From Tequatrovirus BCH953P4, in the sequence record OZ035789.1: a stretch of DNA of 64,000 bases; one strand, given 5' to 3'. Made by a program: the position numbers and the translations under genes. Below are positions 12,050 to 40,521 of the stretch, one piece after another (position 1 is the stretch's first letter; every line of letters starts with the position of its first letter). Below the pieces are notes generated by a model. It did no database searches. It was given only the letters and a program-made list of their open reading frames with translations, and was not told the DNA's origin.

Positions 12050-12520
12050 TTAATCATGTTTCCACACCCCATCGGTATTTGACCAAAGTCGCTGATTATC
12101 TGATCCTCGCCACAGCTTTTTGGTCGGAAGATTTTTCTCATACTTCCCATCAATAATAACATCAACATATTTAAGCATTTCTAGTTGTTTAATATCTTCA
12201 AACTTATATCCTGTCCACAACCAAATGCTTTTATTGGGATAAAGATTTTTAATAGTTTGAACCACAGAGTGAATCACGTCTCTGTTATCAGGATAAAGAG
12301 GGTCACCTCCGGTTATAGTCAATCCTTCTATATAATCATTATTCAAACATTCAATTAATTGTTCTAGTGTTTCACCAGTGAATGGAACACCATTTCTAGC
12401 ATTCCATGTTGATTTATTATAACACCCTTCGCATTTATGCAAACAACCTGTAACGAAAAGAACGACCCTGCATCCAGGGCCATTCACAAAATCACAGGGA
12501 TAAAATCTATCGTAATTCAT
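12050..12520 (-). CDS. nrdG: Anaerobic ribonucleotide reductase activating protein NrdG (radical SAM), 156 aa
   Basis: CxxxCxxC-type cluster (CLHKCEGCYN) and GGDP motif; ATGA overlap with nrdD stop. Confidence 0.9.
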   Translation of the reverse strand: MNYDRFYPCDFVNGPGCRVVLFVTGCLHKCEGCYNKSTWNARNGVPFTGETLEQLIECLNNDYIEGLTITGGDPLYPDNRDVIHSVVQTIKNLYPNKSIWLWTGYKFEDIKQLEMLKYVDVIIDGKYEKNLPTKKLWRGSDNQRLWSNTDGVWKHD

Positions 12521-13796
12521 TGGTGTTTAACCCTATGCATGATTTCTTTGTTTTTACCGAGATTAAATCCGCGTTCGTTCGGGTTTCCAAGATATCCGCA
12601 TGTTCTTCTTATGGTATTCATCTTTTTAGGATCAGTTTCTCCACAAATAGAACAAACAAATCCGTTTTCAGTAGGAGTCATTTCATGGGTACTTCCGCAT
12701 GTAAAACATTTATCTACCGGCATGTTAACACCAAAATAATCTAAATGTTGTGCAGCATAATCCCATACGGCCTCAAGGCCTTTTAAGTTATTTTTCATAT
12801 CAGGAAGTTCAACATAAGAAATGTGACCACCTGTCGCAATGAAATGATATGGCGCTTCACGAGAAATCTTTTCAAACGGAGTAATATTTTCTTCTACTGA
12901 AACATGGAAACTGTTAGTGTACCAGCCTTTATCGGTAACATCTTTTACACTTCCATATTTTTCTGTATCAAGTTTACAGAAGCGATAACAAAGGTTTTCA
13001 GCAGGAGTCGAATATAAACTAAAAGCAAATCCAGTTCTTTCAGTCCACTGTTTAAGATGAGCATTCATCTTAGTTAAAATTTCTTGTCCAATATCACGAC
13101 CGACAAGAATATTCAATTCGTGAATACCAATGTATCCTAGGGACACTGAACTTCTACCGTTTTTAAATAACTCAATTATGTCGTCATCAGGTTTAAGACG
13201 AACCCCGAATGCACCTTCTTGGTAAAGAATAGGAGCAACAGTAGCTTTAACTCCTTTTAAGGAACTAATTCTACACATCAAAGCTTCAAAACATAAATCC
13301 ATTCGTTCATTAAATAGCTCAACAAATTTCTGTTCATTGAACTGTGTTCCAATATAAGAATCTAACGCAATGCGAGGAAGATTCAGTGTTACAACACCAA
13401 GATTATTACGTCCATCAAGAATTTCATTACCAGTTGAATCTTTCCATACGCTCAAGAAACTACGGCAACCCATTGGAGAAACAGGAACAGATGAACCAGT
13501 GATAGCTTTATTGTTTTTAGCTGAAATAATATCAGGATACATCCTTTTGCTTGCACACTCTAGAGCAAGCTGCTTAATATCATAGTTCGGATCGTCTTTA
13601 TAAAGATTAACACCTTCTTCGACGAACATAACAAGCTTAGGAAAAATAGGAGTTATCCCATCACGACCGAGACCTTTAATACGATTTTTCAGAATTGCTT
13701 TCTGAATCATTCGTTCAGTCCAGTCAGTTCCCGTACCAAATGTAATTGTTACAAAAGGTGTTTGTCCGTTAGAGCTGAAAAGTGTATTTACTTCAT
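12517..13796 (-). CDS. nrdD: Anaerobic ribonucleotide reductase NrdD, exon 2
   Basis: Continues the exon 1 frame after the predicted splice (…QAYE|YEVNTLFSS…); C-terminal glycyl-radical and Cys-rich region; spliced product is 605 aa. Confidence 0.85.
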
Positions 13797-13822
13797 CATT
13801 ATATTCAGCATGAGTCGCAAAT

Positions 13823-14593
13823 TCATGCCCGTTTATATGAAACAACAAAATTTGGATAGTCCATAGATATGCAACGTTCTTTTATAGTGCTAGGATGAAA
13901 ATTTAGCGCTTTAGCTGCTTCTATATAAGACGTATACTTAATACCGTCAACAACCACATATTCAGGAACTTTATGAATAGTAGTCTTAATACTCAAAACA
14001 AGAGGATGAGTTTCGACTTCACTTTCAGTGCAATTTAAATATTCCGCTGCTTTTTTAAAACTTCTAAAAGTTTTATTTTTAAGCTTTATCGATACTTGTT
14101 TTTTACTTTTTCGACTATTGATATTATTTTGCACATGTTCCTTAGATCTTCCGTTTTTAGCATAATATTCAGCTACAGAAGATTTTATATTGTTTTTATG
14201 AGATTCGGATAACACTTTACCCTTATGAGCATCTCTTAATTTTTGAATATGTTCTTCAGTATCCGGATGCTTATAAAACTTTTTACCGCCTATGGATTTA
14301 TTTAAACATTTTTTGCTATAAAAATATTTACGTATGACCTCTTCTTCATGTTTTAATGCATCTTTATAACTATCAAATGTTTTTAAAATTATCCATTTAG
14401 TAGGTGTATCAGTTTTTAAGCGTTCATTTATATACTTAGATGACGTTGTGTAAGTTTTCCAGTTTGTGGGCTTGTTTTTAATTGTTCTAAATTTTTTATA
14501 ACCGATATAAATGTCGCCATTAGAAAACTTAACTAAGTATGTAAATGCGTCTTTATCTTTTATTTTAGTACAACGTCTTTTTATCCATTTCAT
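13823..14593 (-). CDS. I-TevII: Intron-encoded GIY-YIG-type homing endonuclease, I-TevII-like, 256 aa
   Basis: ATG start; GDIYIGYKK motif, NUMOD3-like and helix-turn-helix-like C-terminal modules; lies inside the nrdD intron as T4 I-TevII does. Confidence 0.7.
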   Translation of the reverse strand: MKWIKRRCTKIKDKDAFTYLVKFSNGDIYIGYKKFRTIKNKPTNWKTYTTSSKYINERLKTDTPTKWIILKTFDSYKDALKHEEEVIRKYFYSKKCLNKSIGGKKFYKHPDTEEHIQKLRDAHKGKVLSESHKNNIKSSVAEYYAKNGRSKEHVQNNINSRKSKKQVSIKLKNKTFRSFKKAAEYLNCTESEVETHPLVLSIKTTIHKVPEYVVVDGIKYTSYIEAAKALNFHPSTIKERCISMDYPNFVVSYKRA

Positions 14594-14622
14594 TGTTTCA
14601 CCTCGTATTCATAAGATAATCT

Positions 14623-14630
14623 TATTTATA
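14623..14630 (-). promoter_or_regulatory. Late promoter TATAAATA inside the intron, upstream of the endonuclease ORF
   Basis: Exact TATAAATA on the minus strand about 30 nt upstream of the ATG at 14593. Confidence 0.55.
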
Positions 14631-14841
14631 CAAGATGACTGCTGCATGTCGCCATGCAGATTAGACTATATCTTCATCTTTCGATGCCGGCCGTTTCGAA
14701 TAGCATTAGCTTCTATTCTACACCGCTACATTCATCACGGTTAGTCGTTAGGCATTTAGTTCAAAAGAACATTTAGCACGGGATTGTCTACTAGAGAGGT
14801 TCCCCGTTTAGACCGGTTTTACATGAGCCTGAATTAAATTA

Positions 14842-15379
14842 ACTCATACGCCTGAAACGCGTCGTATACATCTTTTTCTGTTTTAGATTGAGCATAATTC
14901 AACGCATCAGCGATTTGCCATTTTTCTGCATCCTCAATATGTTTTGCATAGGTGCGTTTAACATAAGGAGAAAGTACTTTATCTACATTAGCAAAAGTCG
15001 TTCCGCCATATTGGTGAGAAGCAACCTGTGCAGTAATTTGTGCCATAATTGCAGTAGCAACACCGATTGATTTAGGAGTTTCAATCTGTGCATTACCAAG
15101 CTTAAATCCGTTCTCAAGCATTCCTTTTAAATCTACTAAACAGCAATTAGTAAATGGAAGAGCAGGGGAATAATCAATATCGTGGAAATGAATAATTCCG
15201 CTTTCATGCGCTTTCATAATAAAAGACGGGACCATATTTTTGGCAATGTGTTTAGACACAATACCAGCCATAAGGTCCCGTTGAGTTGGAAAAACACGAG
15301 AATCTTTGTTAGCATTCTCGTTTAAAAGGTCTTTATTAGTTTTATGAATCAATCCTTCAATTTCTTTTTCAATTGTCAT
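14842..15379 (-). CDS. nrdD: Anaerobic ribonucleotide reductase NrdD, exon 1
   Basis: N-terminus MTIEKEIEGLIHKTNKDLLNENANKDSRVFPTQRDLMAGIV matches remembered T4 NrdD; ATGA overlap with gene 49 stop. Confidence 0.85.
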
Positions 15380-23739: not shown

Positions 23740-24753
23740 TCATTTATAATAACTTCGATGGTTTTCAAGATAGACCTTCTCAAGGAAGTCATCCCAAAAA
23801 CCCATGTCCACTTTTTGCTGCATACCGTTCTTAGAAGCTTCAGTAGATGCTGCTTCTACTTGATCGACCACATCTTCCAAAAACTCTTGAACGGTTTTAA
23901 ATGGATGTTTACCCAACTTCACGTCGAGAATAAATGGAGCATCTTGGAGTGGATAAACCAAGTCACCAGTTTTGTAAATTTCCAATAGTTGAAGTCCACC
24001 ACGACAGGCATGGCTCAGAGCTTTCCAGTCAATGCCTTCGTTGGCTTCGGCCTTACGAGCGCGTTCACCGTATTCAGCATCTAATTTGTTCAGTGACTGC
24101 TTAAGCTCAATAAGAGAAAGCGTTGTCTGATATTTACGACCCAACACAGTGTAGAACGTTTGTGGGCCTGTTTTCTCATGATTATGGAACACCCATTCAC
24201 AGAATTCGTTTTCTGGAAGACGATGCTTAATATCTTCAACTTTAGTACGACGCTGCTTAATGGAACCGTCTTCTTGGTAATCAACCCATTGCTCAGGGAT
24301 TTGATTAACTACTTTCAATACATCACGTAATGCTGCCAAACGAGAACCCTTGACACCGTATTTAGAAGCTTGCTTACGGACATATCCTAAATATGATTTC
24401 ATGTTAGTCGTATAAAAACGAGAACGGTTGTCTTGAATAAACTTCCACACATCAGGCAAATCAGATTTAACCACTAGTTCAGGTGGAGTGTGAAGCATAT
24501 CCAATGCTACGGTTTCACCATCTGCTGCTAATTTAAAGAAATATTTAAGACTGTATAGTTCATGGTCAATATCATCTTTAGTGTTTTTAGATGATGTATT
24601 GTTAGTGTTTTTACTCATATGTTCTTTAACATTTCCGATAAGAATATCGCGAGCAGGAGGAACAAAGATTTCTTTAAAATCTACATCAGATTCTGGGGTA
24701 GAAGTTCCATAAAGATGACTACCAAAATAGCTTTTCATTACTGTTTTCATCAT
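23740..24753 (-). CDS. Putative Pol-beta-superfamily nucleotidyltransferase-like protein, 337 aa
   Basis: N-terminal YFGSHLYGTSTPESDVDF fits the G[GS]-x(9-13)-DxD signature of minimal nucleotidyltransferases; function unassigned. Confidence 0.5.
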   Translation of the reverse strand: MMKTVMKSYFGSHLYGTSTPESDVDFKEIFVPPARDILIGNVKEHMSKNTNNTSSKNTKDDIDHELYSLKYFFKLAADGETVALDMLHTPPELVVKSDLPDVWKFIQDNRSRFYTTNMKSYLGYVRKQASKYGVKGSRLAALRDVLKVVNQIPEQWVDYQEDGSIKQRRTKVEDIKHRLPENEFCEWVFHNHEKTGPQTFYTVLGRKYQTTLSLIELKQSLNKLDAEYGERARKAEANEGIDWKALSHACRGGLQLLEIYKTGDLVYPLQDAPFILDVKLGKHPFKTVQEFLEDVVDQVEAASTEASKNGMQQKVDMGFWDDFLEKVYLENHRSYYK

Positions 24754-25211
24754 TCAGCCTTATATTCAATAACAGGACATACTTTAGCTTTACGAGCTTT
24801 TAAAAATTCGACGATAATAGATTTCTTGGGTTGAATAGGAGGTAAACCTTTATACGCCCTATCAATATTTTCTACGTGTAAAGCATAATCCTTTTTCCAT
24901 TTATAATCTTTATATTTTTCACGCAAATGTGCAGGAATAACAAATGAACCGATAATAAGTAAAACAACCAAAAGCGCAAGTATAAATGCTGATGGAAGCA
25001 AAGTCCATAAACTACCAAAAATAAGCCAACGTTGTAGGCTTTCTGCACAAATAATTGTTAGCCCTACGAGTATAGCACATCCAAAAATAGAAACGAAAAA
25101 TGTAGGAATGGCAATAGACCAAAAATATGCGCATAGTGTCTTAGGTCGTTGCCATTCATCGTTAAACAATTTGAATAATTTATAGTGCCAAGAGTTTTCA
25201 TTAATAATCAT
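24750..25211 (-). CDS. Integral membrane protein, 153 aa, 2-3 predicted helices
   Basis: ORF track; ATG start; hydrophobic segments. Confidence 0.55.
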   Translation of the reverse strand: MIINENSWHYKLFKLFNDEWQRPKTLCAYFWSIAIPTFFVSIFGCAILVGLTIICAESLQRWLIFGSLWTLLPSAFILALLVVLLIIGSFVIPAHLREKYKDYKWKKDYALHVENIDRAYKGLPPIQPKKSIIVEFLKARKAKVCPVIEYKAE

Positions 25212-25213
25212 AA

Positions 25214-25735
25214 TTATCCTTTCATTGAAGGCGTAACAGTTGTTAAATACTTAATCATAGCTTCAGCTTCTGATTTTGATAATGAAATTTCTCCATTGTT
25301 TTGACGAATAGAAATAAAATCCGGATGACGGTCACCACCAGCTTTTAAAACACACATATAAGTATCAACTTCATCTTCAATATTTGAAATGATTGAAGCA
25401 GTTCCACATGAATGCGGTTTTTGATAAATCAATGCAGCTTTTCTTCCGCCATTTGACTGTTCATAAACTTTTAATACATCAAACAAATCACTTCTTTTAT
25501 CAATAGCTAAAATGTTATTTTCATCTTCAATGTTAAATCCTTCGGATACTTCATAAAGTGTCACCCATAAATCGCCAATATCAATAACAGCGTTCACCTT
25601 TCCATGACTTTCAAGAGCATGACAAATTTTCTTGATTTCGTCATAACTCATTTTAATAATATCATCTCCTTGACTAAGAAAGATGTCATTTTTAAATTCA
25701 ACACGAATTAAACCGCTTCCACTTGAAATAAACAT
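25214..25735 (-). CDS. Hypothetical protein, 173 aa (tandem paralog A)
   Basis: C-terminus SIRQNNGEISLSKSEAEAMIKYLTTVTPSM resembles the C-terminus of the adjacent ORF. Confidence 0.55.
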   Translation of the reverse strand: MFISSGSGLIRVEFKNDIFLSQGDDIIKMSYDEIKKICHALESHGKVNAVIDIGDLWVTLYEVSEGFNIEDENNILAIDKRSDLFDVLKVYEQSNGGRKAALIYQKPHSCGTASIISNIEDEVDTYMCVLKAGGDRHPDFISIRQNNGEISLSKSEAEAMIKYLTTVTPSMKG

Positions 25736-39162: not shown

Positions 39163-39239
<77 letters not shown>

Positions 39240-39242
39240 TAG

Positions 39243-39908
39243 TTAAAATTTCATTTTTCGACCTTTAAACCATCCTTCTGGAATTGGGTCAGTTTTCTTA
39301 ATACGTTTAGAAACTTTTTCATCTAATGAATGAATCCACATCATACCAAATTGGGAATTCTTTTCACCTTGTTGGTGTTTATTTCTGGCGTGAGATTCTT
39401 TCATTTTATTAATAGTTTCAGGAGTATGGGTCTTACCCAAGAAAGATTTAGTATTTAAAAATTTCTCTCTATACTTAGGATTATCCCAAAACTGTTTAAA
39501 CCTTTCTGAACCCATTTTACGATATTTTTCTTTAAGGTCTGGGTCGTTCTCAAATCTGGTTTTAAAAGCGGCAGCTCCTTTTAAGGAAGCTTCTTTCTTT
39601 TTATCCAAATATTCTTTAGTGTTTAAATGGTCCCAACCACCTTCACCACCTAATTTCAAATTATAAACATCAGAGCGCTTTAAAAACTCTTCAGTCACAA
39701 TATTCTTTTCTGACTCAAACATAGAGGTTTTATCGTCAAAGAACTCTAATATTTCTTTAGAAAAATTTTCTATACCATACTTATCTTGGGCTCTTTTTAA
39801 TAATTTACCAGAACCCATATATCCATCATCTAAATTTTCGGTAGAATGAGCGCCTATATAGATTTTATTATTAATTTTATTTGTTATTTTATAAGTGTAA
39901 TGGAACAT
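39243..39908 (-). CDS. segB: GIY-YIG homing endonuclease SegB, 221 aa
   Basis: Canonical GIY-YIG N-terminus YKITNKINNKIYIGAHS; located inside the tRNA cluster as in T4. Confidence 0.85.
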   Translation of the reverse strand: MFHYTYKITNKINNKIYIGAHSTENLDDGYMGSGKLLKRAQDKYGIENFSKEILEFFDDKTSMFESEKNIVTEEFLKRSDVYNLKLGGEGGWDHLNTKEYLDKKKEASLKGAAAFKTRFENDPDLKEKYRKMGSERFKQFWDNPKYREKFLNTKSFLGKTHTPETINKMKESHARNKHQQGEKNSQFGMMWIHSLDEKVSKRIKKTDPIPEGWFKGRKMKF

Positions 39909-39930
39909 AAATATCTCCTATTTCTAAGAG

Positions 39931-39938
39931 TATTTATG
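39931..39938 (-). promoter_or_regulatory. Near-consensus late promoter (CATAAATA) upstream of segB
   Basis: 7 of 8 match, about 22 nt upstream of the segB ATG. Confidence 0.3.
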
Positions 39939-39949
39939 TTCCCAAAATA

Positions 39950-40021
39950 TGGCCCTGGGTGGAATTGAACCACCATCTGGCGATTATGAGTCGCTTGCTT
40001 GAACCTTCCAGCTACAGGGCC
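39950..40021 (-). tRNA. tRNA-Ile (anticodon CAU, presumably modified to read AUA), CCA not encoded
   Basis: Acceptor GGCCCTG/CAGGGCC, anticodon loop CTCATAA, T-loop TTCAATT. Confidence 0.75.
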
Positions 40022-40027
40022 TTGATA

Positions 40028-40100
40028 TGCTGATTGACGGAATCGAACCGCCGACATCCTCATTACAAGTGAGGTGCTCTACCTACTGAGCTAAATCAGC
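40028..40100 (-). tRNA. tRNA-Thr (anticodon UGU), CCA not encoded
   Basis: Acceptor GCTGATT/AATCAGC, D-arm GCTCAGTAGGTAGAGC, anticodon loop CTTGTAA, T-loop TTCGATT. Confidence 0.8.
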
Positions 40101-40107
40101 GAAATTA

Positions 40108-40194
40108 CGGAGGCGATAGGATTTGAACCTATGAGTCGCCGGAGCGACTGCCGGTTTTCAAGACCGGTGCATTAAACCACTCTGCCACGCCTCC
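40108..40194 (-). tRNA. tRNA-Ser (anticodon UGA), class II long variable arm, CCA not encoded
   Basis: Acceptor GGAGGCG/CGCCTCC, anticodon loop CTTGAAA, long variable arm, T-loop TTCAAAT. Confidence 0.8.
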
Positions 40195-40196
40195 AG

Positions 40197-40270
40197 TCTC
40201 CGCGGCAGGATTTGAACCTGCGACATTCTGCTCCCAAAGCAGACGCTCTACCAAACTGAGCTACACGGAG
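40197..40270 (-). tRNA. tRNA-Pro (anticodon UGG), CCA not encoded
   Basis: Acceptor CTCCGTG/CGCGGAG, D-arm GCTCAGTTTGGTAGAGC, anticodon loop TTTGGGA. Confidence 0.8.
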
Positions 40271-40282
40271 TAAATTAAATTT

Positions 40283-40354
<72 letters not shown>

Positions 40355-40360
40355 AAACTT

Positions 40361-40447
40361 TGGTACGAGAAGTGGGACTCGAACCCACAAGGAAATCATT
40401 CCGCAGCATTTTAAGTGCTGTGCCTTTACCAATTTGACCATTCTCGC
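40361..40447 (-). tRNA. tRNA-Leu (anticodon UAA), class II long variable arm, CCA encoded
   Basis: Acceptor GCGAGAA/TTCTCGT, anticodon loop CTTAAAA, long variable arm, T-arm GTGGG-TTCGAGT-CCCAC, 3' ACCA. Confidence 0.8.
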
Positions 40448-40448
40448 G

Positions 40449-40521
40449 CTGGGAATAAAGGACTCGAACCTTTGCATCTAGCAGTCAAAGTGCTATGCCT
40501 TACCAACTTGGCTAATTCCCA
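40449..40521 (-). tRNA. tRNA-Gln (anticodon UUG), CCA not encoded
   Basis: Acceptor TGGGAAT/ATTCCCA, D-arm GCCAAGTTGGTAAGGC, anticodon loop CTTTGAC, T-loop TTCGAGT. Confidence 0.8.

Follow-up and report, generated by a model that had tools for sequence, protein, structure and literature searches.

A Predicted Mobile Group I Intron in nrdD of Tequatrovirus BCH953P4, Homologous to the T4 sunY Intron

The Interrupted nrdD Gene

The window analyzed here is a 64,000-nucleotide (nt) stretch of Tequatrovirus BCH953P4 (sequence record OZ035789.1). The element under study is an insert in its nrdD gene (12517-15379), which has the features of a group I intron and carries a homing endonuclease gene. nrdD, the intron, and the endonuclease open reading frame (ORF) all lie on the minus strand; an earlier reading of the letters alone (the sequence-only reading) had left the strand unstated. 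The gene, its junctions, and its insert are arranged as follows.

14842..15379, minus strand: nrdD exon 1, 538 nt; ORF and Pfam NRDD match (1.2e-40)
14842, minus strand: 5' splice site, after U14842; the last seven exon nucleotides, UAUGAGU (14848-14842), are the exon strand of P1
13797..14841, minus strand: group I intron, 1045 nt; homologous to the T4 nrdD (sunY) intron, ~65% identical
13823..14593, minus strand: homing endonuclease, I-TevII homolog, 256 amino acids; N-terminal SegE-type GIY-YIG, C-terminal NUMOD1/helix-turn-helix-like DNA-binding region
13797, minus strand: terminal G (omega G), with the 3' splice site directly after it, fixed by the intron-less allele
12517..13796, minus strand: nrdD exon 2, 1280 nt including the stop codon; Pfam NRDD (9.7e-123) and Gly_radical (9.9e-26) matches

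The exon-1 ORF (15379..14834) terminates with ...DAFQAYELI and a stop codon two codons inside the insert, and the downstream ORF reaching 12517 includes ...EVNTLFSS.... By direct reading, the sequence at 14851-14842 is ...GCGTATGAGT, the intron starts with TAATTTAATT / TAATTTAATTCAGGCTCATG, and its 3' end, ...GAATATAATG / ...CTGAATATAATG, finishes at 13797, after which exon 2 opens with ATGAAGTAAAT. Joining 15379..14842 to 13796..12517 gives 1818 nt, or 605 codons and a stop, with ...QAYEYEVNTL... across the joint. The predicted ligated junction from this in-silico join reads ...GCGUAUGAGU followed directly by AUGAAGUAAAU..., which in RNA form is ...GAGU followed by AUGAAG.... The sequence-only reading had the frame stop after ...DAFQAYE and resume at EVNTLFSS..., with splice sites after U and after G, an intron at 13797-14841, and 605 codons on joining. 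These claims, including the coordinates, are correct to the base.

The joined product is a complete NrdD protein. One half matches positions 1-141 of the Pfam NRDD model and the other positions 145-562. When the joined protein is compared with the crystal-structure chain of T4 NrdD (1H78_A), residues 1-605 align without a gap; three residues differ, one of which is the engineered G580A. A 400-nt query spanning the spliced junction is covered across the junction, in one place, by 620 phage records. In the intron-less phage RB3, the allele is uninterrupted between the positions equivalent to 14842 and 13796. It reads ...GCTTATGAAT followed by ATGAAGTAAATAC..., that is, ...TATGAAT followed by ATGAAGTAAAT..., matching the two junctions. 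The insertion point cannot be shifted in this comparison, because the bases flanking each boundary differ. The introns of T4 and U5 are inserted at the identical point of nrdD, and each of the eight intron carriers examined has TATGAGT at the end of exon 1.

In both the window's lineage and that of T4, the exon-1 frame meets TAA two codons into the intron (14834-14841), reading UUA AUU UAA here and UUA ACG UAA in T4. Ribosomes would therefore halt just ahead of the ribozyme core.

The Predicted Group I Ribozyme

Three elements of the intron RNA are referred to below.

14642..14833, minus strand: ribozyme core, with guide sequence UUCAGGCUCAUG (intron nt 9-20), P3, P4, P5, P6, P6a, P7, P7.1, P7.2, P8, and P9
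13808..13828, minus strand: 3'-terminal hairpin, GCAUGA/UCAUGC with a 9-nt loop; it is also a stem-loop in a separate fold
13828..13845, minus strand: invariant 18-nt stretch UUGUUUCAUAUAAACGGG, identical in both lineages; the second-longest identical run

A targeted scan of positions 13600-15000 with the Rfam covariance model for group I introns (RF00028, Intron_gpI) gave a match at 14873..14642 on the minus strand. At 70.1 bits (E 2e-17), the match exceeds the gathering score of 50, and it spans model positions 1-253, the full model. Under the same conditions, the T4 intron scored 105.3 bits and a member of the window's lineage in phage 215Ecol030PP scored 70.9, and the intron-less RB3 allele gave no match.

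The secondary structure is backed by compensatory change between the window and T4 cores. RNAalifold, applied to a MAFFT alignment of the two, predicted P3, P4, P5, P6, P6a, P7.1, P7.2, and P9 unprompted, with 13 double changes and no broken pair. When the pseudoknotted core was written out, 98.9% of the cells were paired and 12 pairs were altered on both sides, versus 32-37% paired and 0-2 double changes in a control in which the partners were slid by 1-3 columns. A count by hand that includes P8 and the 3'-terminal hairpin gave 17 double changes, one single change, and two breaks among 64 pairs. Introns of JSE, Vibrio, and Campylobacter phages were left out of the covariation analysis because the ORF splits the core in several of them. 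Both P7.1 and P7.2 are present as hairpins, with two and three double changes, respectively. Subgroup IA2 is defined by this additional pair, P7.1/P7.2, located between P7 and P3'. The T4 database record labels the T4 intron 'group 1A'.

At the 5' splice site, the guide GCUCAUG (intron nt 14-20) can form P1 with the exon sequence UAUGAGU through seven pairs, with U14842·G at the cleavage point. Both strands are invariant across carriers, so that P1 stands outside the covariation test. The P1 of the Rfam alignment pairs exon with exon; it was set aside as implausible, and the guide-exon pairing was preferred. For P10, UUCA (intron nt 9-12) can pair with exon-2 bases +2 to +5, UGAA (13795-13792), giving four pairs here versus three in T4.

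Between the lineages, J7/9 covaries with the two nucleotides that precede the terminal G. Further upstream, T4 has GUAGAG/CUCUAC as its 3'-terminal hairpin; relative to this, four of the six pairs in the window are changed on both sides, and all still pair. The stop codon of the endonuclease (13825-13823) falls inside the 5' strand of this hairpin. The compensated change of the hairpin creates an earlier stop, so the ORF has 256 amino acids here versus 258 in T4. Next to it, the invariant 18-nt stretch lies within the endonuclease ORF, which is itself 63% identical between lineages; the stretch probably belongs to the 3' domain as an RNA element. A search for its long-range partner with RNAduplex returned best duplexes that differ between the window and T4. 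A 5-base-pair match, UUCAU/AUGAA, to the L7.1 loop is possible, and both of its sides are invariant.

The Endonuclease

Aligned at full length, the protein of the intron ORF and T4 I-TevII share 56% identity (E 1e-101). A search of 5.8 billion clustered proteins found just two close clusters, one containing this protein (64 members) and one containing T4 I-TevII (38 members). The ORF matches Pfam SegE_GIY-YIG (PF19835) marginally, at 26.6 bits versus a cut-off of 25, and NUMOD1 at 25.3 bits versus 22.8. It also matches PHROG 314, 'homing endonuclease' (3.6e-29). T4 I-TevII is classed as a GIY-YIG enzyme (PMC2988022), and the T4 database record agrees. The description of the ORF in the sequence-only reading, a 256-amino-acid I-TevII-like protein of GIY-YIG type, thus stands as regards I-TevII and the SegE-type model, and falls short for the canonical GIY-YIG model, which does not match.

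A profile search of 1.84 billion representatives yielded 944 relatives. When 42 of these were aligned, no columns other than Y29, G31, E83, and N98 were invariant; conservation of Y19 was at least 90%. SegE_GIY-YIG is matched by 22 of the 42 (best E 3e-16) and canonical GIY-YIG by four, and 26 carry NUMOD3. No equivalent of the catalytic Arg of I-TevI was identified in the ORF. Relative to I-TevII, the nonsynonymous divergence (dN) is 0.38 and the synonymous divergence (dS) ~1.5, a ratio of ~0.25. The intact, full-length protein has therefore been under purifying selection.

The Candidate Promoter Motif and the Ribosome-Binding-Site Hairpin

Two features precede the endonuclease ORF.

14623..14630, minus strand: candidate T4-type late promoter TATAAATA, exact motif, 29 nt upstream of the ORF ATG; predicted start ~14617-14616
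14598..14638, minus strand: ribosome-binding-site (RBS) hairpin, -17.8 kcal/mol, z -4.8; it pairs the Shine-Dalgarno sequence GAGG (14604-14601)

T4 late promoters have a TATAAATA element near -10 that serves gp55-RNA polymerase. The motif sits in the 5' half of the RBS hairpin and aligns with the TATAAATA upstream of T4 I-TevII. An RNA starting at 14616 is predicted to lack the 5' strand of the hairpin and to have no structure (0 kcal/mol). The equivalent hairpin of T4 has a folding energy of -15.8 kcal/mol (z -4.35). The 3' strand of the hairpin, with the RBS, lies within the longest run identical between the lineages (19 nt, 14613-14595), and the 5' strand carries two C-to-U changes relative to T4 that keep the pairing. 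In T4, the promoters of the intron endonucleases, including that of I-TevII, have been located by primer extension, and RBS sequestration is established (PMC2988022).

We consider it likely that TATAAATA is a late promoter for the endonuclease, because of its conserved T4 position, the hairpin context, and the T4 precedent. It is also conceivable, if unlikely, that the motif is a chance match and that the endonuclease is expressed by read-through or from another promoter. TATAAATA occurs 13 times in the window versus 10.8 ± 3.0 in shuffled sequences, which is the chance level, and both middle and late promoters are mentioned for the intron endonucleases of T4 (PMC2988022). Against a chance match, the motif is kept at the aligned position while the surrounding 30-nt windows are only ~53-70% identical, and a start ~6 nt downstream of it would leave out precisely the 5' strand of the RBS-covering hairpin. 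The exact motif reported by the sequence-only reading is present, aligned with T4 and placed within the hairpin, and its copy number adds nothing in its favor. The earlier observation at this locus is confirmed as a whole and its interpretation is supported, with the late promoter as the weakest part.

An autorepression operator resembling the homing site has been proposed in the promoter/RBS region of T4 (PMC2988022). In a search for such an operator, the best match was 14/20, at the expected place in both lineages. Shuffled introns reached at least 14 in 36/40 and 30/40 trials, and the similarity has no statistical support.

Comparison with the T4 nrdD (sunY) Intron

The window intron shares with the T4 sunY intron the host gene and the exact insertion site, and the two can be aligned from end to end. 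The layout is also the same: the core occupies the first ~200 nt and is followed by a module of promoter motif, hairpin, and RBS, with the ORF downstream of P9. In both, the end of the ORF overlaps the short 3' domain and the exon-1 frame stops two codons in. The two introns differ in sequence, being 64.6% identical overall (72.5% in the core and 63.3% in the ORF), unlike the exons, which are 96.3% and 96.8% identical. The intron has 1045 nt here and 1033 in T4, and the ORF 256 and 258 amino acids, respectively. In the window, P7.2 is longer, P8 is shorter, and the RBS hairpin is extended by a 9-nt insertion.

The endonuclease dS of ~1.5 contrasts with a proportion of synonymous differences (pS) of only 0.15 in the host exons. 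The two lineages therefore split long before their present hosts and entered them by horizontal transfer. On this comparison, the window intron belongs to an old, diverged sister lineage, being a homolog of the T4 intron and not the same allele. The U5 intron, known from a 2004 survey of T-even phages, is of the T4 type. We found no description of the second lineage in the literature, and an earlier description is possible, as key surveys of T-even introns fell outside that search. Public databases already contain sequences of this lineage, in which nrdD is usually annotated as two genes alongside a homing endonuclease.

Distribution, Flanking Exons, and Mobility

The window type of intron is present in ~63 deposited records, 99.6-100% identical, from Tequatrovirus and Mosigvirus. 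The T4 type is present in 25 records (at least 99.2% identical), many of which are T4 laboratory stocks. Each lineage is almost clonal, and the two share one nrdD site in phages that are nearly identical. In the carriers compared, the introns are 99.8-99.9% identical to that of the window and the exons only 92-97% identical. Near-identical introns within exons that differ by 3-8% therefore point to recent homing, and the distribution points to recent spread of the intron through the two genera.

The exon sequences next to the intron differ in a lineage-specific manner. The first 22 nt of exon 2 (13796-13775) are identical in all six carriers of the window lineage, whereas T4-type carriers share a second version and the intron-less RB3 has a third; all of these differences are synonymous. 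The flanks in exon 1 are more mixed among carriers than the exon-2 tract. Synonymous differences from T4 cluster beside the intron, at 13775-13796 and 14842-14871; the first 60 nt of exon 2 are 85% identical to T4 and the last 60 nt of exon 1 are 90% identical, versus ~97% elsewhere. These flanking differences are consistent with co-converted flanks that travel with each intron lineage. Such a fixed exon-2 tract would be expected from an endonuclease that cuts in exon 2, with co-conversion always covering the sequence from the cut to the insertion point. I-TevII cuts ~13-15 nt into exon 2. A cut by this enzyme at a distance from the insertion site has been described (PMC1865063).

Alternatively, the two endonucleases may have diverged in target preference and may compete for one site, so that the exon-2 signatures would be determinants of specificity or immunity and not products of passive co-conversion. 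We regard this possibility as tentative and somewhat doubtful. If it is true, the pair would be the first case in which natural covariation supports the remote 3' domain of a sunY-type ribozyme.

In phage 215Ecol030PP, an intron of the same lineage has lost ~566 nt of the ORF. The remaining 479-nt intron (~501-979 of the locus piece) retains the core, the promoter motif, the RBS, and the first codons, together with the last ~186 nt. This ORF-deleted intron is a decayed stage of the element. Such a loss raises the question of whether the window intron splices but is a stranded passenger, with an endonuclease that is inactive or no longer promotes homing. I-TevIII of the T4 nrdB intron is an example of a defective endonuclease. 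The copy in 215Ecol030PP shows that the endonuclease can be lost in this lineage, and activity of the window protein, which the canonical GIY-YIG model does not match, is only predicted. We nevertheless consider a stranded passenger very unlikely. The ORF is intact and full-length with a dN/dS of ~0.25 and conserved motif residues, and the contrast between the intron and exon identities given above is difficult to obtain without recent horizontal transfer.

Interpretation of the Insert

Taken together, the insert at 13797-14841 on the minus strand is, with a high degree of confidence, a mobile self-splicing group I intron with IA2-typical P7.1/P7.2, located at the T4 sunY site and belonging to a long-diverged sister lineage. 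Its anatomy, its homology, the structural covariation, and the restored frame are established, as is a population pattern that fits recent spread.

Several observations weigh against this interpretation. Whole-window (64-kb) Rfam scans, in both gathering and E-value mode, missed the intron; we attribute this to an effect of the speed filter and not to absence, because the scan of the 1.4-kb interval finds it. The RF00028 score is 35 bits below that of the T4 intron. The proposed P1 depends on our own reading of the guide sequence, and the register of P9.0 is ambiguous, as there are two alternative 2-base-pair registers with one double change each. The covariation sample consists of only two lineages, those of the window and T4. 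For the endonuclease, canonical Pfam GIY-YIG (PF01541) fails on the ORF (E 0.9). The AlphaFold model is poor, with a predicted local distance difference test (pLDDT) score of 57 from three sequences, and the order of its N-terminal elements, beta-beta-alpha-beta-alpha, fits. Foldseek with this model gave no match at E <= 0.001; the top matches, the DNA-binding domain of I-TevI (1I3J, E 1.8) and a GIY-YIG protein (1ZG2, E 2.9), are not significant. The chance-level number of TATAAATA motifs belongs to the same side.

For this lineage, splicing itself, use of the promoter, and cleavage are what we infer from the sequence, and we propose the following course of events. nrdD would be transcribed through the intron, and the guide GCUCAUG would pair with the exon sequence UAUGAGU to form P1 with its U·G, allowing guanosine to attack after U14842. 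The 3' domain, including the terminal hairpin, would bring G13797 to the G-binding site across the ~800 nt ORF, and ligation of the exons would produce an intact 605-amino-acid NrdD. In the read-through RNA, the RBS of the endonuclease would be locked in the hairpin, and late transcription from TATAAATA within the hairpin would yield an RNA with a free RBS. The endonuclease could then cut the intron-less nrdD of co-infecting phages, probably in exon 2 and not far from the insertion site. With the intron-bearing copy as template, repair would then transfer the intron together with a short flanking stretch of exon.

An insert that does not splice, being a free-standing endonuclease gene that leaves nrdD as a split gene or a pseudogene, is extremely improbable. 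A precedent for a gene split by insertion of an endonuclease is nrdA of phage Aeh1, divided by mobE, and most of the deposited genomes annotate two nrdD coding sequences and a 'homing endonuclease'. This is contradicted by the group I core with its compensatory substitutions, by the U·G at the 5' site and the G at the 3' end, and by the exact in-frame join. The site is also that of the homologous T4 intron, which is self-splicing and mobile (PMC2988022). Use of another 3' site, such as one 12 nt upstream, after G13809, where CAUG followed by CUGAAUAUAAUG supplies an in-frame G and the core is far from the 3' end, is just as remote, since it would add four extra residues (…AYE-SEYND-EV…) that are absent from the intron-less alleles and from T4 NrdD, and since G13809 lies within the 3' strand of the covarying terminal hairpin.

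Other Related Systems

The td intron of T4, which encodes I-TevI, is likewise a group I intron in a T-even gene of nucleotide metabolism; it combines a GIY-YIG endonuclease and a sequestered RBS with a late promoter (PMC2988022), for which the window intron has the candidate motif TATAAATA. Short segments of its core match those of the window at 97-100%. It differs in the host gene, and the window endonuclease matches the SegE-type model and not the canonical GIY-YIG one. A search of the PDB with the window ORF sequence gave no match, the solved I-TevI domains included, even at E 10. The free-standing SegA-G proteins of T-even phages are similar in that the best catalytic model for the window ORF is SegE_GIY-YIG and its relatives share NUMOD modules; the window gene, however, lies inside a self-splicing intron, whereas the Seg genes lie between genes.

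The nrdD introns of Krischvirus JSE and Vibrio phage F95 have related group I cores, ~74-84% identical over parts, but they occupy other insertion sites and carry other endonuclease genes (HNH in F95). In JSE (1498-2245 of the locus piece), the ORF splits the core match. In F95 (209-2627 of the locus piece), two HNH genes accompany an nrdD that is split into at least three pieces. nrdD appears to be a repeated target.

Significance

The nrdD/sunY intron of T4 is a classic model for the folding of a ribozyme across a long ORF and for intron homing. The novelty here is a distinct sequence lineage, since function and architecture are as in the T4 nrdD (sunY) intron with I-TevII. The arrangement is the textbook one of T4, and the known picture of how such elements work is unchanged. 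The value of the second lineage lies in natural covariation data for the ribozyme, in the population pattern of two lineages at one site, and in a lesson for annotation.

A sister lineage that is ~65% identical and keeps every helix by compensatory change confirms independently how the RNA is paired, also in the hairpin beside the remote 3' splice site. The invariant 18-nt element (13845-13828) and the 19-nt RBS strand probably act as RNA and are not just coding. From the evolutionary point of view, this is a clear case of an old mobile element whose spread through two phage genera is recent; a degraded copy without the ORF has also been deposited. The window lineage is the commoner type in natural isolates (~63 records versus 25). 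With regard to annotation, most of the ~63 genomes list nrdD as two genes, and whole-genome Rfam scans miss the intron.

Genomic Surroundings in the Window

The window is collinear with T4 from ~31.9 kb onward, but mosaic. Its best overall match in the sequence collection is 97% identical over 91% of the query. Immediately downstream of the interrupted gene, nrdG (12050..12520) overlaps the end of nrdD directly (12517-12520), and the homing-endonuclease gene mobC that intervenes in T4 is absent. In other carriers of the window intron, an insert between nrdG and nrdD is annotated as SegH or as a mobile endonuclease.

Two further ORFs resemble endonucleases. The first, at 672-1559 on the minus strand, encodes 295 amino acids and has no T4 counterpart; it lies in a T4-absent stretch between the gene 45 and rpbA matches. 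It matches PHROG 655, 'homing endonuclease' (3e-32), its N-terminus VYLISF...YYIGSK is GIY-YIG-like, and no Pfam match was obtained at 1e-3. The ORF probably encodes a free-standing endonuclease of the seg type. The second, at 2198-2914 on the plus strand, encodes 238 amino acids on the strand opposite to its neighbors, in a T4-unmatched stretch between the gene 45.2 and gene 46 matches. A PHROG 655 match (8.6e-69), an HNH-like motif HHIIPR...N...H, and repeated CxxC pairs suggest that it is probably a free-standing endonuclease of the mob type.

The place of T4 mobD (24750-25735, minus strand) is occupied by a 153-amino-acid membrane protein (PHROG 944) and a 173-amino-acid y05I-like protein (Pfam T4_y05I_N and T4_y05I_C). 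As in T4, eight tRNA genes are present (39166-40521, minus strand), one of which (39166-39239) is ~710 nt apart from the other seven. The region of this gap matches the segB-containing stretch of T4 at ~88% identity.

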